In this document: positions 9,270-59,300 of the stretch, one piece after another
Numbering within the stretch: the first letter of the stretch is position 1
Layout: each line of letters begins with the position of its first letter
DNA from: Cenococcum geophilum
Lineage: Eukaryota
Direction: 5' to 3'
NCBI GenBank assembly: GCA_050273025.1
Contig: CP158635.1
Location: 12,896,001-12,960,000 of the forward strand
Length of the DNA: 64,000 nucleotides
The notes under the pieces: generated by a model
What the model was told of the DNA's origin: nothing
What the model saw: the letters and a program-made list of their open reading frames with translations, nothing else
The model's database searches: none
Made by a program: the position numbers and the translations under genes

Positions 9270-9942
9270 CTATAGGAAAGGTATAGGAGTATTAAAAGAG
9301 AAAAGGTTAGGTAGTATTAATAAAGAAGGATTACTAAAGAACGAACTACCTAAGGGGGATATAGGAAGAACGATTACCAAGCTATTTAGAGTTATTCCCT
9401 TCTCTATTAAAGGAGAATCTGTTCTTTTATTACTAAGTTCCTATAAACCTTATTCTATAAGTTTTTACTCTTTAAAACGAACCTTTTTATAAACTTTCTT
9501 AAGACGGATTAACTAAGCAGACGCAGTAAGACGAGAATTAAGGGCGCGTTGCTAAGTATTAGCAGCCTTCTTTTTAGCGTTATAAGAATAATAAAGTTTA
9601 GTAAAAGTAACTAAAAGCTTATCGTTAAGCTTTATAGTAGTAAATTAAATACAAGACCCTATAATAGATTACTTAGGGGACTTAAAGACTATTTAGAGTA
9701 ATAAGGCGTATATATTTAGTGTCGGAAACGGAACGAATATTATAAGATAATTAAACGTTTAACTTAGCGCACTTTAAATAAGAGGATAGTTATTGGGAGG
9801 AAGGACTCGCTAACGCAATATAAACTAACCCCTTTTTCGCATAACGAGAATATAGAAATAGTATTATCTTACTAAGAAATAATATTATAGCAACGGTATA
9901 GGACTAACAAGCTATAAAAGAAGAAGAAGGTGCTTTAAGTAT
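9270..9942 (-). pseudogene. Antisense ORF of Gypsy A1: Zn2Cys6-like cluster plus coiled coil, 55-bp intron 9659-9713 (RIP-disrupted; 3' end approximate)
   Basis: De-RIP reading MPKAPSSS..TVAAILSLGEIMPSPCSRCAKKGLVCIALASPSSRQPSSCSECAKSNVRSSCDVRSVSDAE|WSRIQSAAVKL; acceptor TAG|GG intact; aligns with two other copies. Confidence 0.75.
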
Positions 9943-34384: not shown

Positions 34385-35929
34385 TTAGATAGGCATAAAT
34401 GCTTATAGAATACTATTTTAAGATTTAGTATACTAAAGGCACTAAGAATATAAGGGTAGATGCACTTAGTAGAAAAGCTAAACTATAGAATAATAAGAAG
34501 CCATTAGGAGCAATACTATATAAAGATAGTAATAAATTAATTAGGTATAATTATCTTAAGATTATAGTAACTTAGGAATATAAGCTACCGGAAAGTTATT
34601 AGATAAGAAGAATCTAAAAGGCGTAATCTAAGGATTTAGAAACAAACTAGTATAAATAGAGAATAAATATATATATCCTAAGGGGAATAGCAGAAGAGTT
34701 TATTAAGGATTTTTATAAGGGAATAATATAAGGACACAACGGAGTAATAGGCTTAGTATTGAAACTTTAAGAGGAGTATATTATTTATAAAATCTAAGGC
34801 TTAGTAAGAAAAGTTATAAAGGAGTATTTAGATTGCTAGGGAAATAAGCTAATAGGGTATAGGCCGTACGGAAAGCTATAACCTATTAAAGTATTTAGGG
34901 GGTTATAGGGAGCAATATTATAGGACTTTATCGTAAAGTTGCTAAAGTTAAAAGATTTTATTACTAGATAGGAGTATAACGTAATCCTTATAATAGTAGA
35001 TAAGTTAACTAAATAGGGCTATTTTATAGCATATATAGAAGAAATCTTAGTAGAAGATATTGCTAGAATCTATATTAAAGAAATGTTTACAAGATATAGA
35101 GCACTAAGTAAAATTATATTAAATAGAGATTTAAGATTTATAGTAGTATTTTAAGAGGTATTTTTAGCAGAATAGGGAGTTAAAGTGGTAACTTTTACTA
35201 TATATTATCTATAAACGGATAAATAGGTAGAAAGACTACATTAGATACTAGAATAGTATTTAAGACATTATATTAATTATATATAGAATAGTTAGGTATT
35301 ACTGTTACTAGTTATATAATTTATATACAATATAATACCGCAGGAAGGTATAAAGATATTACTATTTTAGGTAAATTACGGATATAGGCCTAGAATACTA
35401 TTGTTACTATAATAAGTAAAGAAAATAAGCGGTATAGTAAAGTAGAGAATAGAGACTCTATTAAATCTTTATAAGGACCTCTATTTTATAGCAAAATTAG
35501 TATAAAAAAATTAATAAAGTACTATAATATTAAGAGATCTAAGGGACTAGATCTTAAGGAGGGAGATAAAGTATAGCTATTATATAAAAATTTTATAAGT
35601 TAATGACTAAGCAAGAAGTTAGATTACGTTAGATTAGGACTATTTAAAATTATAATTAAAGTTTTAGAAGTTATATATAGACTTAACTTACTAGCGAAGA
35701 TAAAGATCTACCTAGTACAGTATATTATAATACTAGAACTAGCGCATAGAGATATAGAGCTACTAGTTTATAAAGTAGATATATATAGAGGATAAAAGAA
35801 AGATAAATAGTAAGTTTTAAAGATTATTAGTTATAAGGACGTCGATAATAAAATATAGTATAAAGTAAAGTAGATAGGCTATAATAAGATTACCTAAGAA
35901 CTACTATAGAACCTAAAGAACGCTATAGG

Positions 35930-36603
35930 AAAGATATAGGAGTATTAAAAGAGAATAGGTTAGGTAATATTAAAAAGGAGCTAAAGATAAAGGGATTAGT
36001 TAAAGGTAATAAACGAGCCGGATTATCTAAGGGATCTACTACTAACGTATTAGTTATTTCCGCCTTAGCTTAATTAGAATCCTTTTTAGCCTCTTTAGCC
36101 TTAAGCTTATAGAGACCTTACTTAATAAAACGGAACTCCTTTAAGCGTACCTTTTTATAAACTTTTTAAGATAAAGTAGCCAAACGGATATAGCTAGGTA
36201 AGCCTTAGTAGCCTATTACTAAGCTTTCGCAACCTTTTACTCTACTTTATAAGAACGGCGAAGTTTATTTAGGGCTAGTAAGAACTCCTTATTAAGCTTT
36301 ATAGTAGTAGACTAAATATAGGACCTTATAGTAAATTAAATAAGGAAGTTAAAGACTTTAAAGACTAATAAGGCGCGTATACTTAGCGTTAGAAATAGAT
36401 TAAATATTATAAAACGATTGTATATTCGCTCGCGTACACTCTATATAGGAAAAGGGTTAGCGACTAGAGGGAGCCGCAATTATAATATATACTAACTTCT
36501 TCTCTATATAACGAGAATAAGGAGATATAATTTTACCTAGTAAAAGAATCGTTAAAATAATATAAGCATAACGCTTAAATACAGAAGATTTAATAGGAGG
36601 TAT
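35930..36603 (-). pseudogene. Antisense ORF of Gypsy B: Zn2Cys6-like cluster plus coiled coil, 55-bp intron 36326-36380 (3' end approximate)
   Basis: De-RIP MPP.ESSASKRRARIVSTILSLGEIMSPCSRC.EKKLVC..IAAPSGRQPSSC.ECTRANMRSSCDVRSVSDAE; same cysteine spacing and intron position as the A copies. Confidence 0.75.
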
Positions 36604-37061: not shown

Positions 37062-37537
37062 TATAAGTTTAGAATATAGGATCTATAAGATCTATTAGAA
37101 CGTTATATACTTAGATTATTTAATATACTAACGTACTTAAGTATTTCTTAGGCGTAGTATTATATATTTAAAGGACTATAGTCCCTACCTAGATAGTTCT
37201 CTTCTTTATAGTAAATCTTAGAATATAATTAGAGTTAATCTATTAGGCAACTACTCCACTAGTTATTATTACATTATTAACTTCTTATTTACCTATATAC
37301 CTAGCCTATTAATAAGTCTACTATAGTATCTTCTATAAGGCTTTATTACAAATATTAATTTTATTAAAGTTTAAAAATGCGTTATTAAAAGCCTAAGCAC
37401 GTATTATATCTTATTAAATAGTTTACTAATATTAATAAAACTATATAGGTGTGTAGATATCTACTACTTAAAGCTATTACAACACCTAGTAGGTATTATA
37501 GTTAGGTCCTTCCTTAAAAATATCCTTCTACGTATTA

Positions 37538-38859: not shown

Positions 38860-39385
38860 CGTTTAATTTTGACGATTTTTACACCCCCCATACACCCATC
38901 CTTTAATTAACGCCATGCCTCCCTCATCTACCATCATAATTAAGGACGATGATACTTCCTCCTCTGCCATTTCTGATCAGTTTACCCACTCTGGCGACGA
39001 CGACGCGTCGAGCTACTCTACACCAAATACACCACCCGTAACCACCCCTAAGTCGCCTCGTAAAAGGCGCAGGTTAGCTACTTCTTCTTGGCACAGCGCT
39101 CGCGCCCGCGCCCACGCCTATGCGTATATACGGTATTCTGTTCAAATGGGTCACGACGAGTCGATGTATTAACGCGAACAGGGCTAGCTGGGCGGCCGCA
39201 GCGGCGCTCAACAGTTAGAGCCTGGGGTGGGGATAGGTAAGGCAAATACGAGGTAATACTTTGGGTATGGGCGCGCAATAGTCGCGCACTAATGTAGATA
39301 CAAACAACTTAAATTTATGTGATATTCTAACTTAATCAGTAGGGAGTGTCCATGCATCAATTGGGGGTGTCCAATTACCGCTGCC
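38860..39385 (+). mobile_element. Probable non-autonomous Mutator-like remnant carrying a short ORF (38915-39172) resembling a transposase N-terminus
   Basis: Right end gtgatattctaacttaat...ttgggggtgtccaattaccgctgcc shares motifs with the right TIR of 45066-45720; both contain (GCGCCC)n; the ORF has an acidic/Ser stretch and an NLS-like SPRKRRR. Left TIR not found. Confidence 0.45.
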
Positions 39386-39508
39386 TAAATTTTAAGCTTT
39401 AAATATTTTTTAAAGCTTTAGAATTAATTGTGTGGTTATTATATAGTAATTCAGTAGGGTTCGTCATCCTAAAAATGCGCTCGGCCGGAGACTTTTGACG
39501 TGGGACTG
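39386..39508. mobile_element. Terminal fragment of a Tc1/mariner (impala-like) element
   Basis: Minus strand reads TA|CAGTCCCACGTCAAAAGTCTCCGG, matching the CAGT-N6-CAAAA Tc1 TIR pattern with a TA flank at 39509-10; partner end not in the window. Confidence 0.55.
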
Positions 39509-39704
39509 TAAAGATAAGGTAGGCGCACTCTACTGGCGTGGCCTAATACATTATAGGCGGGCGGACACAGGGATTTGATTATGCGCGAAACCCACTCTAC
39601 GCGATAAGCACCGATAAACACATACTATCATTGGACGACTAATTCAGTATTGTAAATCCGTTAGAAAGGCGTGATGAATTTCGTTTCTTCCGCCTAAACC
39701 GCTC

Positions 39705-40456
39705 CTAACACTTCCCGCAATTCAGACAAACGCGAGCAAGCTTCATTACAGCACTTTCCAGTCCTCGCTTGCAGTCAAATGACCATACTGCCTCGATGTT
39801 GCCATGAAGGTCCTCGACACCGTTACCATCGCCACCCCTTCTAACAGGTACTGTGACACTGACCCTTCCCACTGTTTTCTCAACCCTTCCTCCATCATCG
39901 CCGTCCATTGTACAGATACCAAGTATATCGGCAAGCCCATTGTCAGTAAGGAAGCCCCCCACTTGCCTGGCAAAGTCCTCAGGTACTTCTTCGGTATCGT
40001 ACATCTCATCGCCGTTAATATTGAAGCCATATTCATATGCTTGGAGCTCGCCCTCGAGAAATCTCCAAGAACGCGGTACGGTAACACCCCCAAAGACATT
40101 ACCATTGGCTGGGACTTGCCAAGGTGTAGATACGTTGCCGTATTCAACTACTCGCTCACCAGGGTCGATCTTGAAGTGGTTATGCAAGAGTGCCAACCCA
40201 AGCCGAAGTTGGACGCCATGTTCCTCGAAAATAGTCCTGCGTGATAGGATTAGCAATGATGCAGTATATCATAGAGACCAGCCTCCCTTGCGATTGCAGT
40301 GGGTACATACTTTAGTTCAGCAAGATCGCTTCTCTCCCCCATCGAGGCCAACTGCATTGAGAGCCGGGTATTCGACTCGTGCAAACTCGGCAATTCGTTG
40401 AAGATTGAGGTTCTGTCGATCATTGTGCGCACATTCATGACTTTTGAGCACGCCAT
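39705..40456 (-). CDS. Hypothetical protein, ~225 aa, two coding exons (40456-40311, 40236-39705), C-terminal CxxCxxC
   Basis: GC-balanced, RIP-free; intron 40237-40310 with GTATGT donor, GCTAAT branch site and GCAG acceptor joins ...LAELK|TIFEEHGV in frame. Motifs FNELPSL, LLHNHF, PW, PRSW, YEY resemble an uncharacterised fungal family (recollection only, not searched). Confidence 0.85.
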
Positions 40457-41138
40457 ACCTGACCTGCAATTAGCTTGCATCCAAGTGAATAAGAAAGCGT
40501 GAAGACCCACCTATTTTGAGGCAGGTTCTGCTTTAAGCTGTCTAGTGGCGTACGATGAGGGTGCCAAGTCGGAAATTGATGGATTCCCGGTGGTATTTAT
40601 ATTCGGCGCCTCCGGTGTACAAGGTGGCAGGCTCTCAGATAAGACACGTTGCTGCCTTGCAGGGCTGCCAAACGCATCGGTGAATGATCACCCAACACCG
40701 CTCAGCATCCACCCTGTCTATTACATCCGCTCATCGAGGCTTGCACTGGCGAGCCAACCGGGCACAAAGTCCCTCCGTATTTCTATGCCTCTGGGCGCTC
40801 AAAACATGCCTAGAGAGGTGGGGGGGCGCAGGTCCTGAGTGGCTCCACGTTGAGCCAGCTGCAGTCAGGTTCCTAACCTAGCAAGAAATGGGTTGTCGAG
40901 GTGGTGAGTTGAATCTCGTGATTGTGCGTGCTGCAATACCCAATAGCAAGAATGAGCACTTTAGCGTTATATGATAAACCCCCCGACTCATCGGGGCCGG
41001 CTCGACGGGTGGGAACCCTTCACCGAGCGGAATACTCAGCGAATAAAGTGCAACACTCATATTGCTCAGACAACTCCACTAGTCCGTTTCCGTCTGCCTC
41101 TAAGCTCCTTAGAAGCTTCGCAAATCCACGCTCAATAA
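40457..41138. promoter_or_regulatory. Divergent promoter region; TATA box for the - strand gene and probable 5' UTR intron
   Basis: Minus-strand TATAAATA at ~40594-40601; GTGGGT donor at 40510 with GCTAAT..CAG near 40460-40475; several CGG/CCG pairs. Confidence 0.55.
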
Positions 41139-43498
41139 ATGGACCGCACGATGAACGACGATGATGAGTGGTTCACCGCTTTTTGGGGAGAGTCAATAGA
41201 AAGTTTTCCTACGAGTCCTGAGAGAGATACCGCTCGAATCGCGTCTGGAGGTAATTGGTCTGAAGAGAGCGATGAGAGCTTCGAGGAGATATCAATCCCT
41301 AATAGGAGTCGTGTCCCCATATGGGATGCTGGGTACGGACCTTCTGATTCTAAGATCAACTGCAGAAATACTGGAACAGAAATGTTCAGCGTAGAAGTTC
41401 CCCCAGCGGGGCGGATTACTTCGCAGTTAGTCCTCTTGGCCTTGTCACTGCACATATTCTGAGCGAGGTTTTCCGCACTGTTAGCGCAGACTACTGATTG
41501 AGAGCAGTTATGGTATTATACGCCACACCTCCGAAGGTTCTCCGCGAAGAACCCGCCAGCCAGCCGAGAATACCGAGCATCAGAAGGCGGCCACTCTCCA
41601 ACCATTCGCGGATTTGCAAAGCGTGTGGAATCCTTTAGCCACAGAAGTAGCTGTGCAGCCAAAGATACCTACAGATCCTAAATCCATAATTACCGAGGAA
41701 CGCAAGTTCTTAGAAAGCATGAAAGCGCAAATCGAGAAGCGACTTCGTGCATTAGACCAGCTTCAAACAGGAAGAGCTACAGAAGGACGAACACATGTTC
41801 CCGGAATTACAATCGGTCGTAAAGGCGAGGAAGCTGAACGTGCGAGAACGTATACTGTAAGGAGCTTTGCTAAACAAGTGTTGTTCTAAGAGTCCGCTAA
41901 TAACGAAACTGCTGCAAATGAAGTCGAATATTCAAAATCGAGACTATCACTCTGTCAAACGCACGAGTCCTGTAGCGATTCAGCATCAAGGATCTCCAAG
42001 CTTAAAAGCAATCAAGAATCCTAAGCAAAACGTGGAAGGAAAACGACTCAGCCGGAGGGGAGGACGGCCAGGCGGAGACACATGCATCCGATGCAAACAT
42101 CAGAAATTGAAGGTCTGTATTTGCTTTAATATCGTGAAGGTACAACTTGATGATGTGCTATAGTGCAAAGGAAGAGCTCCTTGCGAAGGGTGCCGGAAGC
42201 TCAAGTTATGGGCACCGATTTGCGTGCCTGCCGGCTTCGCGAGTGATAGGGTCTATATACGTGGTAGGACTGTTTTCGGGTTCAAAATCCCCCTTGGGAT
42301 GTATATTGATATTCTGCAGGGCTGTACAAAGCTCGTATGAGTAATTTAATTTCCAATGTTGCAAATTGGATCCCTATGAATCCGTTCGTTGCACCTCCGA
42401 CCATCACAGTTTCAAACGGCTTCCCTGTGACATTATCTCTTGAAGTACAAGAATACACACCACACAATACGAGCGCCCTAATACATGTCATATGGCGTGG
42501 CATGGAAGCTGGAACAATTCCGCCTCAGGTTCAAAGCAGTCCATTTGGACTCAATCCAAGGAGATATGATGTGAGAATTATCGATTCCTACCTGGACGAA
42601 ATGGTGCCACATCTTATAGAGAGTGTTGCCAAAGAGAGCCCTCAACTGATTAGAGTGATCCTGCTACGGGCATACAGTCAGAGTCAAAGGGATGATTGGA
42701 TAGAAGGAGCGGCAGGTGTAAGTACAGCTTGTGTTTCTTAAAAGATGACATATCATTCTGACCCAATTGTCCAGAACCTGCTCATCAAAGTGTCCTTGCG
42801 GCTTTGGGCGGCGCAAACCATATTCTTCAAGTCGCATTGGAGGATTGACTCTGGCGCTGAAGTTGTACAAATGGCACCCCTTGATATCCCTGGCTATTGG
42901 AATGGCGTGACACTCTTACCTCGCCTTATCAACCAGCAATTGGACGCTCTCTTCGAGCAGCGGATGGCTGATCTGGAAAAGGAAATCCTGTACCATCTGC
43001 AAGTAGCGATGCATAAAAATCGCCGTGACTTGTGGTTCTCCATCTTCCTTAGCACTTTCCTAGTGCTCCATAGTTTGGAAAAGGATTCCTGGAATCTCCA
43101 CGCTTGGATGTCGGAAGTGCGCCGCGATGGCGGAGCAAGTTGGCCATTGGAAACCAAGCCAGAGGTGTATAATGACCAAAATACTCATCTTGCGCATCTT
43201 TTGTGTGCACACTATAAGTCCATTTGCAAAGGTAGTACGCCGCTCACTCTCGATTGGACGCGCCCAAGCACCAAAAAAATAGTACACAATGACGAACTCA
43301 CTGCTCAGTTCTTGCAAGGGATCAGCGAACTGATCAACAAACAAGGTTTTTGATTACCGCTTTCAAGGGTTTCTATGTTGATTGCTAATGACTTCAGAAG
43401 AACTCCAACGACTGAAAGCGCAGGGGGATGCACGCTTCACACGAGAGGACAACAGCAGCTTAGATCTGCTCTTTACGTCGAAGCTACTTATAGACTGA
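41139..43498 (+). CDS. Zn(II)2Cys6 fungal transcription factor, multi-exon (~650 aa)
   Basis: Spliced cluster CIRCKHQKLK|CKGRAPCEGCRKLKLWAPIC (C-X2-C-X6-C-X5-C-X2-C-X9-C). In-frame introns: 41426-41507 (alt. acceptor 41489), 41857-41923 (acceptor uncertain), 42113-42163, 42264-42319, 42718-42774, 43346-43397. Stop TGA at 43496-98; start 41139 or 41151. Confidence 0.9.
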
Positions 43499-43969
43499 CT
43501 AAAGATTAGCAGTCATGGAAAGCCCCACACGTATGCTCATGATGAAGCGGGGTCATGGGTTAACTTATTTCAGTGTATGCACCACCCCAATATCCCCAAG
43601 CTCTACGACTGAGATTCACGTTGCGGATTACCTTTGCCTTTCAGCCTCATGCACACTGCTGAGATTTTGCTCCCTAATGCTTCTTTCATTACAAAGTACG
43701 AAGAACACCATGAAGCTTTTCCAAAGGTTTCCAACGATTTCCAAATGTTCAACTTAGCGAAAAACATCTTCCCTCCTTTGACGAAAGGGCTGCAGGACGC
43801 CAGTGGCGCGGTAGAGAATTGCCCTGCAGCGGTTGTTGTTTCTGTCAATTTTGCGCATGTCAATTTAGTAGCGTGGCTCTGATGTCACTCACCGTGCTAA
43901 GTAAAGTCCAAGCATCGCAGGTAGCAGCTATTGTCGCGAAATACAAGTTGAGAACGGTAAAGAGATGGC

Positions 43970-44042
43970 CAGGCTTAGGTTTTTAATCCATAATCAATAT
44001 TGATTAGTGATGATTGAATATTGAATATTGAAGCTTTTCGCG
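43970..44042. mobile_element. Probable terminal fragment of a DNA transposon (hAT-like)
   Basis: Starts CAGGCTTAGG at the sharp edge of the gene island; subterminal caatattg/gaatattg repeats; partner end not visible. Confidence 0.4.
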
Positions 44043-45720: not shown

Positions 45721-48700
45721 ATTAATAAAGCTCTAAGCTATTAGTATAAATATAATTACCTCTAGCTAATAACGCGTATATATATCTTAGTAGTAAATAA
45801 GCTAATAGAATATTTAAGGAAAAACTTAGTTGCTCTATATATTAAAGCTAAAGCCGTTTAATGTATTACCTTTAATTAGCTACTCCAGGTAATTTACCTA
45901 TATATTTTAGTAGAAGACCTTATAATAAAGATATAGTAGAACAGCTATATAGTAGACAGGCGTATTATTAAGCTTTTTAAAATACTTCTATAGCTTTAGC
46001 TAGCCGTAATTAAAGTTACTTATATAGCAATCCTTAATTATATCTTAATCTAGGCAATTATTTAAAGTTACGTTAATTATGCAATCCTTTCTCTTTTTAA
46101 AAAGCTTAAGTAGCTAATTAAGTATAGAAATAACCTACCTTTAGCTTTAAGTATCTTTATAAAATCTTAAACTAGTAATAAAATCTTAATATAGTTATTA
46201 ATAATACTCTAGTTGTAATTATTTAAGGTACCTACTACTATAATAGGCAGTAGTAGAGGAACCTTCTGTTATTTAGTATATAAAGGAGCTGTTTCCTTAT
46301 ATTTATTTATTATATATTATATAATTAAGTTAATTAGGCCGTGGAGGATAACGGCTTATAAAAAGGTATTATAATAACTATTCTACCTAGTCTTAACTAG
46401 CTTTACTACTTCTAGTATTTTAAAATTATAGCCTAGTAAGGCCTCTTACTTAGCCTTTTAGTAGAATTTAAATAGTTAATAAAGCTGCGGTATATTTGTT
46501 ACGGAACTTGGCAGAACTTAGATGGTAGAACTTAGTAGAACTTCGCACCGGCTATAACAGGACTAGCCCAGTTACAGTAGGAATGTCTCGGTAAAACACT
46601 CGACAGATAAATTCCGACGCTTTGACTAAATTCTGCCAGATTAATTGAATTTTACCAAAGTCCGTTAAAGACCGCGTGCGTATATATGCACGCATCGACC
46701 ACCAAGCCCTTAACTATTTAATTATACGATTCTCTTATTATTCCCTTTCTCTTCTTTACGCAACGTCTTGTTCTTAGCAAGAGCTATATACCCTTAAATT
46801 TAGATAGAATTTATATTATTCCTTTAAATCTTCTCTAAAGTCTTTTCGCGCCCTTATATTACGTTACGTTAATACTAATACCCTTAAAATGGCAAACGAA
46901 CTCAAATCCGCTACGATAACTATTATAACCCTAGTTAGGGAATAAATGACTATAATACAATAGTCCTTTATAGATGCCTTAGCCTAGTAATAAACTATAC
47001 TAAAAGCTTAGCATTAATAATCGATTAAAGCAATATATAAAGAACTCTATAACGCTAAAGTACTCGCGTTAGAGACCCTAATAGCAACACCTATAAATAA
47101 AATTAAAATAACTATATATAAACCTAACCCATTAAATATAAACCCTAAACCAGTAATAGCAGTTTAACCTATACCTATAATAAACCTAGTACCTACTATA
47201 TAATCCAAAAAGCTCCCTAACCCTCTAATATTTAATAGAAATTAAAATAACCTATATCCCTTTATAACTAAGCTCCGTCTTAAACTTTTAATAAACTATA
47301 ACTAATACCCTACTAAAGCTAGTAAGATTAGCTATAGAATATCTTATTTAAGTAAAAACGCTACACAAACTATAGACCTATTCTTCTATAACGGCACCTT
47401 CGTTAATTTTAAAATCTTTATCTTTTTACTAAAACGAATATATAATAACGCTAGCCGCGAACATATAGCTGTTACTAAACTTAAAAACCTATAATAACGG
47501 AACCGAGACTTTACTAGCTTCTTTTCGGAATTTTTAGGCCTTATTAGTAAACTAGATTGGAATAAAGCCGCTAGAGTTACTGCCCTCCATTAAGCTATTT
47601 TAGATAAAATTAGAGTATAGTTAGTAGGTAGAGAACTGCGAAAGAACTTACCTAAATTTGCTATAATATATTAACGAATTAATAAGGACCTTTAATATAA
47701 TAAATAGACTTATTCCCTAAAGCCAACTATACCTTGCGTTTAAAACTTTATAAAATTAGTATATACCTTAAAGCGCGATCCGTCTCCAAAACCTAAAAGC
47801 CCTATATATAACCCTATAAACCTTAATGCTACCTAATTTTATATACCCTTAGGAACTAATAAATAAAGAACATACGCCGCAAATAGAGAATATTTTAGAT
47901 ATAGAAAAAGGGATATATTTAAAGGGATTGCCGAACTTACCCTTTTAAAAAGGTTCGCCGTAGCTCCTCTTAGTTCTTAAGTTATACTTATTTTATAAAT
48001 TATACTTATTCTATAAATTATACTTAGTTGCTATAAAGTATCTTACCTTTAGTTAATTTGGAAAATAAATTATCCTAAGGCTAAGTTGCGCCTTAGGATA
48101 AGAAGTGGAAGAGTATAAGTATCTAGGCTCTTCTAGCGTTAATATATAATATAACTCCCTTAATATACTTAGCGAAATTTAAATACTTAGAAAATAGAAG
48201 AAAGTATAAATCCTTATAAATAGCGGAGCTACTAGTATAGGCTTTATTAATATAAACTACGCAAAAACTTAATGCTTAAATTTAAGGAAACTTAATAAGC
48301 CCTAAGGCCTATAAGGCTTTAATAGTAAGCCTTTAATATACGGCGAACTAACGTACTACGCTCTTATAAAGATGCGGATAGGCGAATACCTTAAATATAT
48401 TTCCCTATTTATAACACCCTTAAAGCATTATAAGGTAATACTTGGATATAAATAGCTAAAATAACACAACCCTTTAATTAGCTAGGTTAAAGAAACACTA
48501 AAATTCCGTATAACCTACTACTAAAGTTATTGCTTAAAATACCACTTACCCTATAAACATGCATATAACTATTTAAATTTAATATAATATAAATTACCCT
48601 TACTATAAACCCTAAACCAATATAATAAAGTTATAACTGCCGATCGCGGTAAAGAATGTAAAGATAATATATTAAAACCCCTTAAAATTTATATAATATA

Positions 48701-48762
48701 AGCCGCACCCTTTTATTTGTTAGTAGGAAAATAAGACTATAAGATCTTTACTATAACACTAG

Positions 48763-51700
48763 TGTAACGGAACCTTGTAGCAAGTACTACGGTAGGTCCG
48801 TTACACAATTACTACCTAGTTACGGTTTCAATAAGTCAAACAACATGCTACCAAAAGCAGCCACCACGACGCCATTAACGGCGGCAACTACTTCGAGATT
48901 AGGTAACAACACTAGTATAGCAGACACTAACTTACAACAACCTGTGACAGTAGGACAGTTACAAGAGATAGTTAACTAGTTGACGGAAAATAATGTAATA
49001 CTTAAAAATAGGATTAACGGGATAGGTGTAGTAAAGATTAAGCTACTATCAATCGAGAGATTTTTAGGGGAAAGATTAAAATTTAAAGGATTCCTTACGC
49101 AAATGCATTTTAAGGTTTTATAGGAAGGAGCTAAGCTACTAACACCTATGGATTAAGTGGCGTACGCAGGATTGTTCTTATTAGGAAGAGCACTTAAATA
49201 GTTTAAGCCTTACCTTATAGAGATATAAGTAAATAGAATAACGACTATAAACTAAGAAGTACGGTTTATGTTCTTAAGCTGGAGCGGATTCGCGGAGCGA
49301 CTTATATAAATGTTTAGAGATCTAGAGGCAACAACCACAGCGGAAAGAAAACTTTAAGATATTACGCAACGAACCTTAGCAATTAAGTACACAACGCAGT
49401 TCCAGACGCTAGCTATATAGGTTAAGTGAAATAATAAGGCGCTTATAGCACAGTATAAATAGGGACTTAAGGCTAAAGTCTAGGATAGAATTATCCTAAT
49501 GGAAGATACGGGCACCCTAAGGGAACTAATAGATTAAGCAATAAAGATTAATAATAAGATCTACTAAAGGGAACAGACCAAGAAGGGTTAGGATAGAGTT
49601 TTATAGTCGTATAAGGCGTAGAGTACGCAACGACCAAAGCTAAGTTAGAAAATATGGTATGGCGCAGAGCTAATAGACCTAAGTAGTACTAAAGAAACCT
49701 ATAAGAGATGGAGTAAAAAACTATAGAAACCTGGAGGTTAAGGATTAAGTAATTATAGGACTAAGGAGCATAGGCTAAATTAGGGATCTTAATAGTAGAA
49801 GACGTTTAGGCGGACTCTATAGCAAAGCTAATAGTTTAGAGACTGAGCTTATATAAATTGCGGAAAATAAGGTCATTTCGCTAGGGATTGTAAAGACGGT
49901 TAGAGTTACTATGTAATAAAGGGAACCAGACTAGTAGACAACACATACGTATAGAGGGACGATAGTGTACTGCGAGGAACAAAAGAGTGTTTAATTAGAA
50001 GTTTTGCGTTCTATTATAATAACGCATGCTAAACTTATAAGGACGCTAAGTATAGCGTAAGCTATTGGCTATAAGAGCTAGAGTTAACGAAGTATAGAGG
50101 CATTAACGAACTATCTTGTAGATTAGACATTAAAGACGATGAATTCAATATAGGCGAAGCATTTAGTAACAATAAGGCAATAAGAGTAGCTTACTAGGAG
50201 CGTGCAAACCTCGGAGAAGTTATATTAGAAGTAGAGACTGAGACCGCTACAGAGCAAGGTTTAGTAACGGGTATTATAACACCGCTAGATACGATATCCA
50301 TTACTTTATAAGATGGAAGGAGTAATATCTAAAGACGATTAAGTAAGTAGACGACTGCTAGTGCTAGCTCACTACTTAATAAAGGCAAAAGGCTAAAGGC
50401 TTAAGATTTATAAGACGAGATAAAAAACGACTAAGATTCTTAAAATAAGATAAGGTATGCTTAGGGACCTATAACGGACGATAACCGATAGAGTAGAGCA
50501 ACGGCTTAGTTTAGTAATATATAAATGAGCTTAGGACGAAGTTTCCTAAAGGCATAAGATTCTTAAAGCGAGATGAGTGAGATTTAAGACTCTTAAAATA
50601 AAATAAGAACACTAATAAAGCCTAGTTAAATTAAGGCTAGAGTATAGCTTAAGAAAGAAGCAAGCTTAGGATTAAAGAATCTAAGAGACTAAGAATTTGA
50701 AGTATAAATAAGGAAACCTATAAGCAAGAGGTAAGAGGCTTCGCTACAGATTAGAGAATCTATAGTATAAATAGCGGTTAGACTAGGAGATAGATATATA
50801 GACCTAGGAGACTTACCGGGTAAACGAGGCGTTTAGCCTAAAGATTAAAAATTTGATACCGAGATTAGGAAGTAAGAAGACTTTAAGGATCTACTTATAA
50901 GACGTAAAAAGAAAGAAACTATAGAGGAATTTAGAGCAAGAATTACCTTATAGCAAGAATAGAAACTAGATAAGAGATCTAGCATATTAGGTTATATAAG
51001 GGACAGAGCACCTATATAAAGAATTACTAATAGACCTAGAATAGGCATACTAAGAGCTAAGTGGCTTATTAAACTAGAATAAGAAGAGGATCTAGGGATT
51101 CTAACTAGGTTTAAAGAACAATATATAAAGGGCTGTCACAACGCAGTAATAAAAAGATACTTTCTTACGGATAGACCGTATATACTTAAGGAGCTGTACT
51201 AAAAGTGGTATAGGCAACGATATAATAATAAGTGGGAAGATTTCTATATGTGGCTAAATAAATAAGTTATCTAAGACCACCCAATTATAATAAAGGCTAT
51301 AACTTATATTAAAGGAGTCTTAATTATAATATTAAAGGATTTAAAGGAGCAATTAGAGAACTAAAAAAGCGAAAGGCAAATCTTAGTACCTGCAAATGAA
51401 GTCGCAACGCTTAAGTTGGAACGATAGAGGTTTAAACTTAAGGATAAAGACAAGCTAAGAGTTAACCCAAGATACCAAGCACACCACATATTGGCGTGGA
51501 TCGTATATGTAGATAATACGTATAATATATATAGAGCACCCAAAGATAAGAACTAGAAGTACCTAATAAGGATATATTAGGCACCGGATAAGGCAAAGTA
51601 TAGAAATACTAAGTATATATATAGTTAGCACCCCGTAGGAGTTCAAGAACAAGGGGACTTAATACTTTAACTAGGAAGATTCCTTACAGAAGAATGCCTA

Positions 51701-54700
51701 GATAAATGACAGTAGTGGGAATACCTAAAGAATATGTGTCTATGGTATATTAAAGAAAAGAAGCGAACTAAGTATTAGCTAAAAGTGGACTAAGTATAGA
51801 CAGGATCTAGTAGCCAATAGTTAGGAAAAGGGGAGGCCTATAGAACTAGAGGGAACTAGTAGTAGAGCCTTAGACCCTTAAAGGAATTTAAGGACGACAC
51901 CTAAATTTATAAGTTAATTGGCAAGATTAGCAGTTTAAAGCATTAGTAGATAGTGGAGTAATAAGGAACCATATTTTACTAGTAGTAGTTAAAAGGATAG
52001 GACTACCATTATCTATTAGTTATAATTTTAGGAGATCCGATAGCCTATAGAGAAGGCATTATTAATCTTAAAACAGGACCTATTTAGCTAACCATTAAAG
52101 GAAGATAAATTAAGATGTCTTTTAATATATTGCCATTAGGGAATAATAAGGCGATACTAGGAATACCTTAGTTACAGGAATATAATCTAAAGATCGATTG
52201 GGTTACAGGTTAGGTCGATATTAGGGATACTTAACAACATAAAATGCGATAACAGACTAAGTTGGTATAGTACTAAGTCGGAGCGACATATAAGGAAACT
52301 AAGAAAGGGTTAGATTATATACCAAAGAGATACTATAAGTATAGTAAAAAGTTATAGTCACTAGAAAGTGAAAAGCTGTTAGAATATATAGTATAGGACT
52401 ACGAGATAGAGTTAGAACTAGGAATAAGTCTAAGGTTATTTCTAACCTATAAGCTTACTAAAGAAGAGGGTAGAGCACTTAAAGAGTTTATCTAGGAGAA
52501 CTTACGAAAGGGATATATTAGACTATTATAGTTATTAGCGGGTTATCCAGTACTGTTCGTACCAAAGAAGAATAGAAAACTTAGGTTATACATTAACTAT
52601 AGATAGTTAAACAGCATTATAAGAAAGGATAGGTATCCTTTACCCTTAATTAGCAAAATCTAAGACAGGATTGGTAATACGCGAATCTTTATAAAGATAG
52701 ATCTAAAATGGGCGTACTATTAGATTAGAATCAAGGAAGGCAACGAATAAAAGGCAGCCTTTAGGTTAAAGGAAGGATTATATAAATTATTAGTTATGCA
52801 ATTCGGGCTTATAAACGCGCTAGTAACGTTCCAGAAACGAATTAATAGCGTATTAGGAAAGCACCTTAATGAGTTTATTATAGTATACCTTAACGACATT
52901 ATTATCTACTTAATAATGGAGGAAGAGCACAAGGAATACGTTAAATGGGTCTTAAAGAGACTATAAGAAGAATAAATGCTAGTAGCAATTAAGAAATGCG
53001 AGTTCTTTATAAGGAAGACCAATTTCATCGGGTTTATTATTAAATTAGGCAAGCTAAGCATAGACCTAAAGAAGATTAAAGCTATAGTAAATTAGCAAGA
53101 ACTAGAGAACGTTATATAGTTGAGATTGTTTTTAGGGTTTTATAATTACTACAGGAGATTTATAGTATAATGGTTAAAGAATATTAAGCCATTTACTTAA
53201 TTAATAAAGAAAGAGAAACTATAGGTATGGGAAGAGAAGTAGAGGAAACTATTTAAAGAACTTAAGGAATTATTTACCTAGGAACTAATCTTCAAAATCT
53301 ACTAACCAAAGTTAGAGACGGTATTAGAAACGGATATATTAGACTTTATACTAAAGGCATACTTTATATAGAAATATAAAGACGGATGGCACCTAGTAGC
53401 ATACTATAGTAGGAAGATAACACTACTAGAACTAAACTATAACATCTATAATAAGGAGTTATTAGGTATAGTTATAGTATTAGGGGAATAGAGAGCATTC
53501 TTATAAGGCATAGAGAAACTATTTATAGTTAAGACGGATTATAAGAACCTAATAGGATTCCTAATAATAAAGGAACTTAACTAAAGATAGGTTAGATGGG
53601 CAGAGACACTTACAGACTACTATTTTAAAATCTAGTATATTAAGGGTATAGACAACACATAAGCAGATGCGCTAAGTAGAAAGGCTAAACTACAAAACAA
53701 TAAGAAGCTATTAGGGGCTTTATTACGAAAAGACATAGATAGATTAATTAGGTACAATTATCTAAAAATCGCAGTAACTTAAGAAGACGTAATAGAAAGA
53801 GCCTACAAGACACTAGAAAGCTTTTGGGTATAAAAGATTTTAAAAGCATAACTAGAAGATCTGTAGGTAGATATATATAAAAACCAAAAAGTAAAGTACA
53901 TCCTAAGAAATATAGCAGAGCATTTTGTGGAAGATTTCTATAAGGGAATAACTTAAGGACATAATGGAGCTACGGGCTTAGTGTTAAGACTCTAAGAGGA
54001 GTATATTATTAACGGAATCTAGGGCATAGTACGAAAAATTATAAAGGAATATCTAGATTGCTAAAGAAATAAACTAATAAGGTATAAGCTATATGGAGGG
54101 CTACAACCTATTAAAATACTAGAGAGACTATAGGAGGTCATATTATAGGACTTTATTATTAAGTTACTAAAGTTAAGAGATCCTATTACCGGACAAGATT
54201 ACGACGCGATCTTAGTAATAGTAGATAAGCTAACAAAGTAGGGATACTTTATAGCATATATAGAAGAAATCTTAGCGGAAGATGTCGCTAAAATCTATAT
54301 TAAAGAAGTGTTTATAAGACACGGAGCACTAAGTAAAATTATATTGAATAGGGATCTAAGATTTATAATAGCATTCTAGGAAGTATTCTTAGTGGAGTAA
54401 GGAGTTTAAGCAGTAACTTCCACCGCATATTATTCACAAACAGATGGTTAAACAGAGAGATTAAATTAGACGCTGGAGTAGTATCTAAGACATTATATTA
54501 ATCACGTATAGAATAATTAAGTATCGTTATTACCAGTTATATAGTTTATATATAATATAACACCTTAAGAAGGAATGGGTACATTACCATTTAAGGCAAA
54601 TTACGGATATAAACTAAGAACATCGTTATCACTATATTAAGTAAAGAAGATAAGTAGTAGAGCTAAGTAAAGAATAAAGGATCTAATAAATCTTTATATA

Positions 54701-56350
54701 AACCTTATGGAAATAGCTAAGGGAGTATAGTAAAAAATAAAAAAGTACTATAACGCTAAGAGATCTAAGGGACTAGATCTTAAGGAGGGAGACAAAGTAT
54801 AGCTACTATATAAAAATTTTAAGAGTCAACGACTAAGTAAGAAGTTAAACTACGTTAGGCTAGGACCTTTTAAAATTACGCAGAGGATTTCACTAGTTAT
54901 GTTTAAGTTAAACCTACTAGCTAAAATAAAGATCTACCTAGTATAGTATATCGCGATACTAGAGCTAGCGTATGGAAATATTAAGCCACTAGTTTACAAA
55001 GAAGACACGTATAGAGGGCAAGAAGAGGATAAATAGCAAGTTTTAAAAATCGTTAGTTACAAGGATATAGACAATAAAATATAGTACGAAGTAAAGTAAA
55101 TAGGCTATACTGAGACTACCTAGGAGCTACTAGAGAATTTAAAGAACGCTATAGGAAAGGTATAGGAGTATTAGAAGAAAATAGGTTAGGTAATATTAAT
55201 AAAGAAGGATTAAAAAAATAAGTTACCTAAGGGGGACCTAGGAAGAGCGACTGCTAAACTACTTAGAGTTGTTTCCTTTACTAATAGAGGAGGGTTAGTC
55301 CTCTTATTACCTAGTTCCTAAAGACCCTATTCTATAAGTTTCTACTCCTTAGAACGGACCTTCTTATAAACCTTCTTAAGACGGGTTAACCGAGCGAACG
55401 CAACCTGTTGAGTTTTAAAGGAGCGACGCTGGGCCTTAAGGGCGCGAGCAGTCTCCTTAGCAGAATAATAGAGTCCGGCACGAGCAGCGGCCAACTCCAA
55501 TTTAAGCTTTATAGTAGTAGATTAAATATAAGACCTTATAATAAATTACTTAGGGAACTAGACGACTATTAAGAGTTATAGGACGCGTATACTTAGCGTT
55601 AGAAATAGAGCGAATATCGTAAGATAATTAAACGTTTACTTTAGTGCACTCCAAACAAAATAAGGGCTGTTAAGATAATAGGCTTGCTATTATAATATAT
55701 ACTAACCCCGCTTTTAAACAGCGAGAACACGGAGATAGCATAATTTTACTAAGTAATAGTATTGCAGCAATGGTGCGGGCACGACGTTGCGCTTATAAAG
55801 AGGAAGTTGCTTTAGGTATAGTAAGTAATAATAATAACTAAATTAATTAGATAGATATTATACCTCTAGTAAACGACTTAAAGATACTAGGTATCTTTAA
55901 GGATAAAGATAAAGAGGAGGGAGATAGTATTACGGACGCTTTAAGTACAATATTATAACTACTTAGAGAGGAGTTAAAAGAAGCTAGTTAGTTAATAAGA
56001 GCACAGTCTAGGATAAAGCCGGTAGAACCATGTAATAAGGAATAGTAAGCGAGTCATATAATGTTATACGCAGTATACGCGGTATACGTATTATACGTAA
56101 ACGTATAATACGTATAACACGTACGTTACGTATAAGAAGGATTTTATAGGAGTACGGTTGTGTATTTAAGGACCCTTAGTCCCTACCTAGATAGTTCCTT
56201 CCTTAAAGTAATTCTTAGAATATAATTGGAGTTAATCTATTAGGCAACTACTCCACTAGTTATTATTACGTTATTGACTTACTTGTAATACCTATATACC
56301 TAGCCCATTAACAGGACCCACTATAGTACTTACTATAAGGTTCCGTTACA
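48763..56350 (+). mobile_element. Ty3/Gypsy chromovirus family A copy 2, with aberrant 43-bp 5' terminus and normal 3' LTR (55929-56350)
   Basis: TSD actag at 48758-62 and 56351-55; gag ATG ~48846; CCHC C.NCGK.GHFARDC (~49850); protease ALVDSG (~51940); RT FGL.NA..TFQ/YLDD (~52800-52900); RNase H; integrase; chromodomain (~55115). Confidence 0.95.
55150..55819 (-). pseudogene. Antisense ORF of Gypsy A2: Zn2Cys6-like cluster plus coiled coil, 55-bp intron 55536-55590 (3' end approximate)
   Basis: Literal translation ...QRRARTIAAIL...SPCSRCLKAGLV[Y]-X13-CLECTK-X6-[Y]D: four Cys intact, two TAT/TAC (RIP of TGT/TGC). Exon 2 reads KL.LELAAARAG...ETARAL.AQRRSF.TQQVAFARLTRL. Confidence 0.8.
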
Positions 56351-59300
56351 ACTAGAAGATATTAAAAAGGCGTTAAAACTAAAGTAATATATTAACCCAC
56401 AACCTCTTATACCTAAAGAATATTATAATCTAATTAATACGTTTAAGAAATAATTCGTAAACTAACTACCCCCGCATTAAGATAAGCACGATTTTAAGAT
56501 AGAACTTAAACCTAGTATAATGCTAAAGTTTGGCCTATTATACGGTATGTTATAAGAAGAGCTGCTAGTAATATAATAATACCTTAAAGAGCACCTAAAG
56601 AAAGAATTTATTCGCCCTAGTTAATTATTATTCGCCTTACCTATACTATTTATTAAGAAACCTAGAGGAGGCTTAAGGTTCTGTATTAATTATTAAGCCC
56701 TAAATATAATTATAATTTAAAACCAATATCCAATTCCTCTACTTTAAGAAACACTTAACTACTTAGTAAAAGCATAATACTTTATAAAGCTTAATATAGT
56801 CGCTGCCTTTAATTAAATCCGTGTTTATAAAGGAGATAAAAAGTATACGGCTTTCCGTATATAATAGGGACTTTTTAAATACTTAGTAATACCGTTTAAT
56901 ATAAAGAACGGTCCTAGTATGTTTTAGTAATATATTAATAATATGCTTCGCGAATTCCTTAATATATTTATTACCGCGTATATTAATAATATCGTAATCT
57001 ATTTATCTTTACTTTCTAAGTATTAGAAGCATGTCTAAATAGTCCTTAAATGCCTATAAGACGCGGGCTTATAATGCGATATTAAGAAATATAAGTTCTA
57101 TACGTCTAAAGTTATATACTTAGGCCTAATTATATCCCGTAATAGAATTAAAATAAACCCTAAGAAAATTGCTATAATTATAAACTAGGAAAGTCCTAGT
57201 AGTATATAAGATATCTAAGGATTTCTAGGATTTGTAAATTTCTACTATTAATTTATTAATTACTTCTTAAAAATTGTTTAGCTATTAGTAAACTTAATAA
57301 GAAAGAATATAAGATTTAAATAGACTACTAAATATAAATAAGCTTTTAATAACCTAAAATATTATTTTATAACTACTCTAATTCTTACCTACTTTAATCT
57401 AGACCTTAAATATATCATTAAAATAGACTCGTCTAATTATATACTAAAAGGAGTGTTATTACAATATAATAAAAACAGCAAGCTACGCCTAATAGCCTTT
57501 CTCTCTTAAAAACTTACCCCTATTAAATTAAACTATAAGATATATAATAAGGAACTACTTATAATTATTAGATGCTTTAAATAATAGCGTTTAAAACTTA
57601 AAGGATTGTTATTCTTAATATGCGTATTAACGGACTATAAAAACCTATAGTACTTTATAACTATAAAGTAATTAACGCAGCGCTAAATTTATTAGGCTGA
57701 ATACCTTTTATAATTTAACTTTAAGATTATATACTAACCTAGCAAACTTAATTAGAAGCCTAACTTATTAATATAATAATTATAAAACTTACCTATAAAC
57801 GCCTCTAATAAACGGATTATAAATTAATTATAAATTCTACTGCCCCCTAAGCGCTTTAAGAAAATACGCCCTATGTTTTTAGATTCGGAGCTTAATAGAA
57901 ATAAATTAGAAATTAATAAGTAGGATATAAAAATTAATAAATTAACAGAGTATAAATATAAGAATAACCCCTAAATAGCAAATATAATAAAAACGATTTA
58001 AATAGGGAAATAGTAATATAAGGATATTACACTCGCTAAATACGAAATCTATAATAATTGGTTATACTATTAATAAAAGATAGTAGTCCTAAATTCCAAA
58101 CCCTTATAACCTAAGATACTTAAATTTATATATAATTCCCCTATAGTAGGGCACCCTAGCTGTATAAAGACCTATAAGATTATCTAATAAGCATATTACT
58201 AGCCTATAATGTATAACTATATATAAAAATATATTTAAGTATATAAAATATATATGCGTAGGAAGACCTCTTATATAAAGAAGTAAGAAGTACTTTAACC
58301 GTTGCTAATTCTAATATAAAGATAGCGAGATATTTTAATTAACTTTATAGTTAACCTATCTAATAGTAATAGGTTTATAAATGTTATAATAGTTATTAAC
58401 CGTCTTATAAAAATGCGATATATAATTCCTATAGACTTAATTAATGCAATATTAGTAGCCAAATATTTTATTAAGTATGTTTTTAAGCTATACGGACTTT
58501 CTAATTTAATAATATCTAATTACGGAAGCCAGTTTGTTTTAGACTTCTAGTAAACCCTATATAAATAATTAAGTATATAAATATAACTCTTAACTGTATT
58601 TTATCTAGAGATAAACGGTTAAACTAAAATTGCAAACGCGATTATAGAATAATACTTATAAATATACTACTCCTACCTATAAGATAACTGGGAAAAGTGG
58701 CTACCTTTAATTAAGTTTACTATAAATAATATAAGAAACTAATTAATAGGTATAATACCGTTCTACGCAACCTATAGATAAGACCCTTAACTTATATTTA
58801 AATTACGACCTAAAATTAATATAATAGGACCTATAATTAAGAGGATTTAACTAATTAACGTATATAACTTCGCTAATTAAATAAAATAGTTAACAGAACT
58901 ATTATAAAGTAAATTAGTATACGTTTAAACATTATAGAAATAGTATATAAATAAAGAATAAGCTTCTGCATAGGACTTTAAGAAAGGTAATATAGTTTAC
59001 CTAAATATATAAAACCTAAAGACTTTATAACCCTTAAAGAAACTAGACTGGAAGTTTACGGGCCTATACTAAATTAAAAAGAAACTAAGCCTATACACTT
59101 ATAAGCTTAAACTACTAACTAAAATAAAAATATATTTAACGTTTTATATAAATTTACTATAACCCTTAAAAGGTAAACCTATAACTTATAAAGTGCTACC
59201 GCTACCTCCTATAATTGTTAATAACGGTAACGGTTCTTACTTTATTAACTTAATTAACGATATATAATAGAAAATATAATCTAAACAATTTAAACTCCTT

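Follow-up and report, generated by a model that had tools for sequence, protein, structure and literature searches.

An antisense six-cysteine gene in RIP-degraded Ty3/gypsy chromovirus copies of Cenococcum geophilum: a probable accessory gene of the element lineage

Accessory genes of long terminal repeat (LTR) retrotransposons are rare and mostly unexplained. Here we describe a candidate in a 64,000-nucleotide stretch of the Cenococcum geophilum genome (GenBank assembly GCA_050273025.1, contig CP158635.1, positions 12,896,001 to 12,960,000), which we call the window. The candidate lies on the minus strand at 55819..55149, inside an element copy that we call A2, and we refer to it as the antisense open reading frame (aORF). 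Its anatomy is conserved, its place in the element is fixed, and it was under purifying selection before the copies were mutated. We put at about 0.6 the probability that it is an accessory gene of an ascomycete Ty3/gypsy chromovirus lineage, antisense and in two exons, that encodes a protein with six cysteines and a helix and that was killed here by repeat-induced point mutation (RIP).

The antisense gene in the window

On the minus strand of A2, the interval 55819..55149 holds a start codon, the six-cysteine spacing, a 55-nt interval, a helical exon rich in Ala, Glu and Arg, and a TAG stop. Exon 1 (55591..55819, minus strand) is read directly from the sequence. It starts with ATA, derived from ATG, continues with a basic N-terminus and the six-cysteine module, and is broken by three RIP stops (TAA). 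From 55819 the frame reads IPKATSSL, a stop, and then AQRRARTIAAILLLSKIMLSPCSRC-x6-Y-x13-CLEC-x8-Y. The module itself (55619..55729, minus strand) has the form C-x2-C-x6-C-x13-C-x2-C-x8-C, from direct reading and from a family alignment with Cys or Tyr in the six columns. In A2 it runs C-S-R-C, x6, Y, x13, C-L-E-C, x8, Y, so that cysteines 1, 2, 4 and 5 are literal and positions 3 and 6 are tyrosines (TAT/TAC). A first-pass annotation, made from the letters alone, had proposed this minus-strand frame with four literal cysteines and two TAT/TAC codons as RIP products, and both proposals agree with what is read in A2 and with the mixed columns of the family. The peptide that it quoted is in the correct frame, with some letters already corrected for RIP: its initial M is actually ATA, and its LGEIMPSP is the de-RIP reading of LSKIMLSP.

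The putative 55-nt intron (55536..55590, minus strand) has the ends AT..AA in A2 and GTGCGC..TATAG in less mutated copies. Exon 2 (55149..55535, minus strand), assigned by reading, alignment and an AlphaFold2 (AF2) model, encodes a long helix and then a Ser/Pro/Gly-rich tail that ends at the TAG stop at 55151..55149. The open reading frame (ORF) that forms this second block, 55521..55342, is in the +1 frame relative to exon 1 and is rich in Ala, Glu, Arg and Lys. Exon 2 of A2 carries RIP stops and a 2-nt deletion near 55209-55212; the contigs of relatives have two additional letters at 55212. Thus the start codon, both splice sites and the reading frame have all been hit in A2. The start codon is about 340 nt inside the internal region of the element, outside the LTR, in which the first-pass annotation had supposed a hypothetical antisense promoter.

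In a six-frame translation of the window, the pattern [CY]x2[CY]x6[CY]x13[CY]x2[CY]x8[CY] occurs three times, and the three occurrences are exactly the aORF of A2 and its remnants in copies A1 (9270..9942, minus strand) and B (35923..36603, minus strand), the latter from a more divergent subfamily. Both remnants, identified by sequence reading and the pattern scan, keep one of the six literal cysteines. When the window was shuffled 100 times with composition preserved within 2-kb blocks, the pattern appeared 0.09 times on average and at most once, and never with four or more literal cysteines.

The window is AT-rich repeat DNA that bears the signature of RIP. In the element copies TpA/ApT is 1.67-1.96 and (CpA+TpG)/(ApC+GpT) is 0.12-0.47; the same indices are 0.75 and 1.29 in a GC-rich island at 39500-43500. 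The three copies of the antisense gene are RIP-killed pseudogenes with no present activity, and for the window alone the result is one of annotation, namely three dead copies within RIP-degraded repeats.

The host element

Element A2 (48763..56350, plus strand) is a RIP-degraded Ty3/gypsy chromovirus copy inside another repeat, and was delimited by BLAST of the region against the window. Its gag-pol is a single frame, that of 48761, when X stands for each stop. In this frame Pfam recognizes Retrotrans_gag, zf-CCHC, RVT_1 (E 1e-21), RT_RNaseH, Integrase_H2C2 and SH3_Tf2-1; two models match the RNase H, and a protease is not detected. The chromodomain that forms the C-terminus of pol (about 55034..55180, plus strand) was located by homology, with its coordinates moved over by an alignment of translations. 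The Pfam Chromo model (cut-off 25.1 bits) scores 31.9 bits in one less mutated relative (L026) and 24.8 bits in another (L003), and has no match in the window copies, in which the chromodomain is too damaged. The assignment of A2 to the chromoviruses combines its own sense-frame gag, zinc knuckle, reverse transcriptase, RNase H and integrase and its LTR flanks with a chromodomain recognized through relatives. The 3′ LTR (56159..56350, plus strand; about 192 bp, start approximate) was found by similarity to the ends of other copies, and its TG...GTTACA termini were read directly; BLAST matches it elsewhere in the window (56137-56354 to 37139-37354, and 56163-56340 to 34146-33971). A purine-rich tract directly upstream, at approximately 56132..56157 (plus strand, direct reading), is a putative polypurine tract (PPT).

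About ten codons at the 3′ end of the aORF lie antisense over the end of the chromodomain. The antisense placement next to pol is shared by relatives. Among 91 matches to exon 1 in metagenome loci, 81 have the C-terminus of pol on the opposite strand no more than 1.2 kb downstream, with a median gap of 423 nt; eight of the others have too little flank and two have no pol C-terminus. A position antisense and downstream of a chromo-integrase, which had been suggested as a check on the candidate, is thus the rule among the related copies.

Relatives and the cysteine columns

Word-indexed protein searches with the X-read exons of the window gave no matches, because RIP has destroyed the shared words. 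A phmmer search of X-read exon 1 against 1.84 billion representative proteins returned 72 proteins at E<=1e-3, from which two long repeat proteins (P0049 and P0053) were dropped. The 70 that were kept are short ORFs of metagenome and genome assemblies, and most of them are affected by RIP as well. A profile search then collected 639 proteins at E<=1e-3, and none of the 120 of these matches that were listed has a Pfam domain on record.

The family alignment has a mixture of Cys and Tyr in every one of the six columns, and 169 of the 188 proteins examined have the exact C/Y spacing. Within this set literal cysteines are kept at all six positions in 2 proteins, at five in 10, at four in 31, at three in 47, at two in 43, at one in 33 and at none in 3. 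Since RIP converts TGY to TAY and never the reverse, the six positions were ancestrally cysteines. The two relatives that retain all six, P0079 and P0036, are the only ones among the 188.

A third informative relative is P0025, a nearly unmutated protein of 110 residues and a singleton on a 2.1-kb metagenome contig of the Joint Genome Institute (JGI). In P0025 the cysteine module continues straight into the helix sequence of exon 2, i.e. both exons are joined. A scan of metagenome contigs with P0025 yielded 79 loci from three related projects. The scan used back-translated peptide patterns, mainly one octapeptide with Tyr at the third cysteine position, and the third-cysteine column of the locus set is biased because of this.

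Purifying selection before RIP

RIP produces transitions only, and for this reason we measured transversions, as purine/pyrimidine diversity per column in an alignment of 91 copies, of which 3 are those of the window and 88 come from the loci. In exon 1 the diversity at codon positions 1, 2 and 3 is.081,.032 and.164 (Wilcoxon test of position 3 against the mean of 1 and 2, p 9e-7), and the periodicity persists when the two search octapeptides are removed (p 3e-6). In exon 2, read in its own +1 frame, the values are.118,.109 and.210 (p 3e-7), and the other two frames give p>0.99. The aligned copies are mutually related and were ascertained via exon 1, a bias from which exon 2 is free. The phase of peak diversity shifts by one exactly across the intron. 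Codon periodicity is absent from the intron (diversity about.07-.09, p 0.5-0.75) and from the upstream region 55990..55820 (.062,.055 and.070, p 0.45-0.8). The signal is not that of pol, since the third codon position of the aORF falls on the second of pol; below about 55170 the wobble does track pol. That the aORF is a real gene, under purifying selection before RIP, is well supported by these results, and the selection anticipated in the first-pass annotation is found as a third-position transversion excess in both exons.

Could the region nevertheless be no gene at all, with a cis-acting sequence or an extension of pol in its place and a C/Y pattern that arises from RIP-skewed composition? 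Two observations speak for this: less mutated copies have a pol frame that runs uninterrupted through the complement of exon 2, and conservation is also high in the non-coding flanks. However, the transversion periodicity follows the frames of the aORF and switches at the intron, the wobble in the pol-frame extension beyond the chromodomain does not track the pol frame, the three occurrences of the pattern in the window compare with 0.09 expected from shuffles, and the C/Y columns and an invariant stop are found family-wide. A non-coding explanation is largely refuted and, in our view, hardly credible.

We note two side observations on this region. On the plus strand at 55180-55540, the pol frame is open for at least 90 codons past the chromodomain in the less mutated relatives, and the stops in this stretch are polymorphic with Gln, Trp or Arg codons among relatives. 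Both 55820-55990 and the intron (55536-55590) are more conserved in transversions than the third positions of the exons; they look like non-coding DNA under constraint, which might hold splice signals, a promoter or 5′ untranslated region (UTR), or a sequence that acts in cis in the sense RNA. For the first of these stretches (55820..55990, minus strand), with its low transversion diversity and its place just before the aORF start, a 5′ UTR or promoter is a candidate role, as is a cis function in the sense RNA.

Exon-intron structure and RNA evidence

A de-RIP reading was computed by script from 20 close copies. It has no stop from the ATG at 55819 through the end of exon 1, nor in the exon-2 frame between the acceptor and the TAG at 55151..55149, a stop common to all 22 aligned copies. 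With 55 nt removed the whole is open from ATG to the invariant TAG; this is about 205 codons, close to the product of about 200 residues that had been predicted, and the ancestral protein is accordingly taken as about 205 residues long. The ATG is present at the aORF start in three relatives (L028, L058 and L071). Extension of the ORF upstream of this Met, by 90-120 codons in many database ORFs, was ruled out, as that region is without codon periodicity.

Every locus that matches both blocks has exon 2 in the +1 frame, about 55 nt past exon 1. An alignment of the junction reveals a conserved acceptor, TTATTATAG followed across the junction by GG, and a branch-like motif of the TAAC type. Among GT..AG intervals with a good donor, the 55-nt GTGCGC...TATAG (55590..55536) alone brings the two blocks into one frame. 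There is an in-frame alternative of 49 nt, with the donor GTCCTA (55584..55536). A donor GTATAC/GTGTGC at 55592 was tried and ruled out, its 57-nt interval being out of frame. In one sublineage (loci L004 and L067) the interval at the junction is about 120 nt instead of 55 nt. An intron of about 55 nt can persist in such an element, since in the genomic RNA, which is sense, the stretch does not act as an intron.

The sequencing runs that match the stretch are DNA runs of two organisms and root and soil metagenomes, with small shares in fungal metatranscriptomes. For RNA, one raw RNA-seq run and three sets of metatranscriptome contigs were compared at 80% likeness. The raw run has no reads on 55310-55897, and the joints reported in RNA contigs are pieces of diverged contigs, none of them at the intron. 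We infer the expression and splicing of the aORF from P0025 and the logic of the frames. As a separate observation, runs X15 and X18 contain the same contig, 757 nt long in X15 and 748 nt in X18, at a depth of 25-30. It aligns in four pieces on 55100-55950, where it lacks about 100 nt relative to the window; it could be a spliced transcript or one from another lineage.

Domain and fold tests

The Zn2Cys6 signature is C-x2-C-x6-C-x(5-12)-C-x2-C-x(6-8)-C, with basic residues between the second and third cysteines. The first-pass annotation had placed the aORF in this Gal4-type family. A true member would be expected to bind specific DNA sequences as a dimer, with the LTR or host promoters as its targets. 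The build resembles that of Gal4-type factors (PF00172): six cysteines in 2+1 / 2+1 order form two C-x2-C-x6-8-C halves, and a long helix follows after a linker of 6-9 residues, which mirrors the succession of cluster, linker and coiled coil. Of all Pfam families, Zn_clus (PF00172) also matches the most members at E<=1, namely 5 of 150 relatives. None of the 150 reaches its cut-off of 21 bits, however; the best has 16.5 bits (E 0.009) and covers model positions 16-36 of 39, i.e. one half-site, and the window's own exons have no match to Zn_clus even at E<=10. The loop of 13 residues between the third and fourth cysteines is one residue above the range of 5-12 in the PROSITE signature. The basic residues between the second and third cysteines are partly missing: Lys and Arg are present after the second cysteine, but a Gly stands at the fourth place, which is basic in the signature. 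With no Gal4-type chain among PDB sequences and poor models of the cysteine part (see below), the assignment to the Gal4 family is not upheld, and we consider it unlikely that the aORF is a true member.

The six-cysteine domain DUF3716 (PF12511) offers another home for the module, in which case the protein might be an accessory factor of the transposon, e.g. one that binds RNA or protein or counters silencing. P0079, with its six cysteines, aligns to model positions 7-59 of 59 (16.4 bits, E 0.0086). The domain is fungal and transposon-borne: as far as the accessible part of the source describes them, two genes of the IS3EU-like DNA transposon REP9 of Zymoseptoria, REP9-1 and REP9-2, carry it (PMC8232023). 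The match of P0079 is nevertheless the sole one among the 150 relatives, none of which reaches the cut-off of 22 bits, and REP9 differs from the host of the aORF in being a DNA transposon whose genes are not antisense inserts of a retroelement. An affiliation with DUF3716 seems to us somewhat unlikely. P0036, the other relative with six intact cysteines, matches no Pfam family.

Among the ESM Atlas neighbours of P0079 are clusters of Ascomycota of both kinds, DUF3716 and Zn(2)-C6, none of which reaches the bar of the tool; the Zn(2)-C6 neighbours have a feature score of 0.75 and a template modelling (TM) score of 0.67 over 60 residues. The AF2 model of P0079, built with 150 RIP-laden rows, has a mean predicted local distance difference test (pLDDT) score of 64 and is unusable. 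For P0025, with the 42 best-kept rows, AF2 predicts a single helix at residues 47-109 with a pLDDT of 95-98 and resolves nothing else; a Foldseek search of this model against the PDB has no matches at E<=0.001. The helix agrees with the earlier description of exon 2 as helical, Ala/Glu/Arg-rich and probably overlapping the C-terminus of pol, an overlap that takes in about ten codons of the aORF at the end of the chromodomain. Two TFIID rows in a PDB profile search were set aside as chance-level matches in the non-coding read-through part. The six-cysteine module probably binds zinc; on this evidence it can be assigned neither to the Zn2Cys6 family nor to DUF3716.

The proposed accessory gene

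In our reading the ancestral gene lay in antisense orientation after the chromodomain end of pol and before the PPT, as two exons with an intron of about 55 nt. The ancestral protein would have had a basic N-terminus, the six-cysteine module, a linker of 6-9 residues, a long alpha-helix and a Ser/Pro/Gly-rich tail.

Several results weigh against this proposal. The join in P0025 corresponds to 52 nt removed in the window's family, which does not quite agree with either GT..AG model (55 or 49 nt). No junction at 55590/55536 was seen in RNA reads or contigs (one run and three contig sets); the 55-bp intron of the first-pass annotation has behind it the frame shift and the GTGCGC...TATAG of relatives. 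One metatranscriptome contig passes unspliced through the intron, and could be sense RNA or DNA. In the window exons and the 150 relatives, the cysteine module is above threshold in no Pfam model. No Gal4-type chain is among the PDB sequences matched at E<=10 by a profile of the 150 members, and the AF2 models of P0079 and P0025 are poor in the cysteine part (pLDDT 46-78). Finally, all 79 loci are affected by RIP, come from three related projects and were found with search patterns from one protein, and hence sample few lineages.

It has also to be asked whether the gene matters to the element. A host gene fragment may have been captured by one element family and then passively carried, with no role for its carrier. 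Capture from the host is a frequent origin of accessory ORFs in LTR elements, and a role of the aORF for the element is a proposal of ours. Passive carriage does not readily account for the same place being kept in divergent sublineages, the longer-intron group (L004 and L067) among them, for purifying selection during the spread of the family, or for a 3′ end that is interlocked with the end of pol. We find it improbable.

Comparison with known systems

The antisense layout has a precedent in fungi. The gene brtn of Boty was reportedly described by Zhao et al. in 2011 (Virology 417:248). From what the accessible parts of later papers say of it, brtn is an extra antisense gene between pol and the 3′ LTR of chromodomain-bearing Boty-like elements in Botrytis and Sclerotinia, published in 2011 (PMC7264820, PMC8365987, PMC4227169). 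By that description, which is the only level at which the two were compared, the aORF shares with brtn the antisense placement between pol and the 3′ LTR of a fungal gypsy element with a chromodomain, and we find this layout in the 3 window copies and in 81 of the 91 related copies. The novelty that the first-pass annotation implied was therefore overstated, as an antisense gene at the same place had been in print since 2011. The literature covered, in which subscription journals are thinly represented and some sources are accessible in part, holds no six-cysteine or zinc-cluster antisense gene in fungal retrotransposons that we could find beyond brtn (PMC3248453 included). The layout, then, is of an already known kind; the protein family is uncharacterized and abundant.

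Conserved antisense ORFs between pol and the 3′ LTR are also described for plant Ty3/gypsy elements, namely Grande of maize, RIRE2 of rice, Retand of Silene and PvRetro13 of Phaseolus (PMC7264820, PMC4408406; accessible parts). They have the same position as the aORF, but their lineages are those of plants and mostly non-chromovirus, and their proteins have other domains (PMD, transposase 28) or none, with no six-cysteine module in the accessible descriptions.

The regulatory model that we have in mind comes from a retrovirus. HBZ of human T-cell leukaemia virus type 1 (HTLV-1) is an antisense spliced gene whose product is a dimerizing, helix-based nuclear regulator of the virus's own LTR-driven transcription. 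The aORF is like HBZ in being antisense, in having two exons (with splicing inferred here), in its helix and in its residence in an LTR retroelement. It is unlike HBZ in that the latter is a basic leucine zipper (bZIP) protein of a vertebrate retrovirus and is transcribed from the 3′ LTR; the two are not homologous. By this analogy the protein might bind zinc and nucleic acid or chromatin, pair through its helix and modulate the expression or silencing of the element, a possibility that we hold tentatively. A wider generalization would be that a broad group of ascomycete LTR retrotransposons encodes an antisense, spliced, dimeric nucleic-acid-binding regulator of the zinc-cluster type, a fungal counterpart of HBZ that tunes LTR transcription or blunts silencing, with DUF3716 as a transposon-borne branch of the fungal Zn2Cys6 world. 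This we think quite unlikely.

What gives these ideas their interest is that the aORF family is conserved, was once under selection and is abundant in environmental fungal sequence (639 database proteins), and that the predicted build of a zinc module and a long helix suggests a regulator brought by the element itself. If an intact relative binds the LTR or affects silencing, then fungal transposon biology would gain an HBZ-like handle, and an orphan cysteine domain would gain a function.

Other features of the window

The 5′ LTR of A2 is a stub of 43 bp (48763-48805) that keeps both LTR termini (TGTAACGGAACC...GTTACA), which are inverted repeats of one another. A2 is nested in another repeat, as its flanks match a second copy of that repeat in the window (48001-48762 to 26105-26865, 86%; 56351-56993 to 28183-28833, 89%), in which the two matching segments are about 1.3 kb apart. 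Upstream of the purine-rich tract and the 3′ LTR lies a palindromic, TATACG-rich stretch (56064-56135) with an inverted self-match of 72 nt at 81% and a high transversion diversity. The island at 39000-44000, with a GC content of 0.46-0.51 and normal RIP indices, is surrounded by RIP-degraded repeats and probably consists of single-copy genes.

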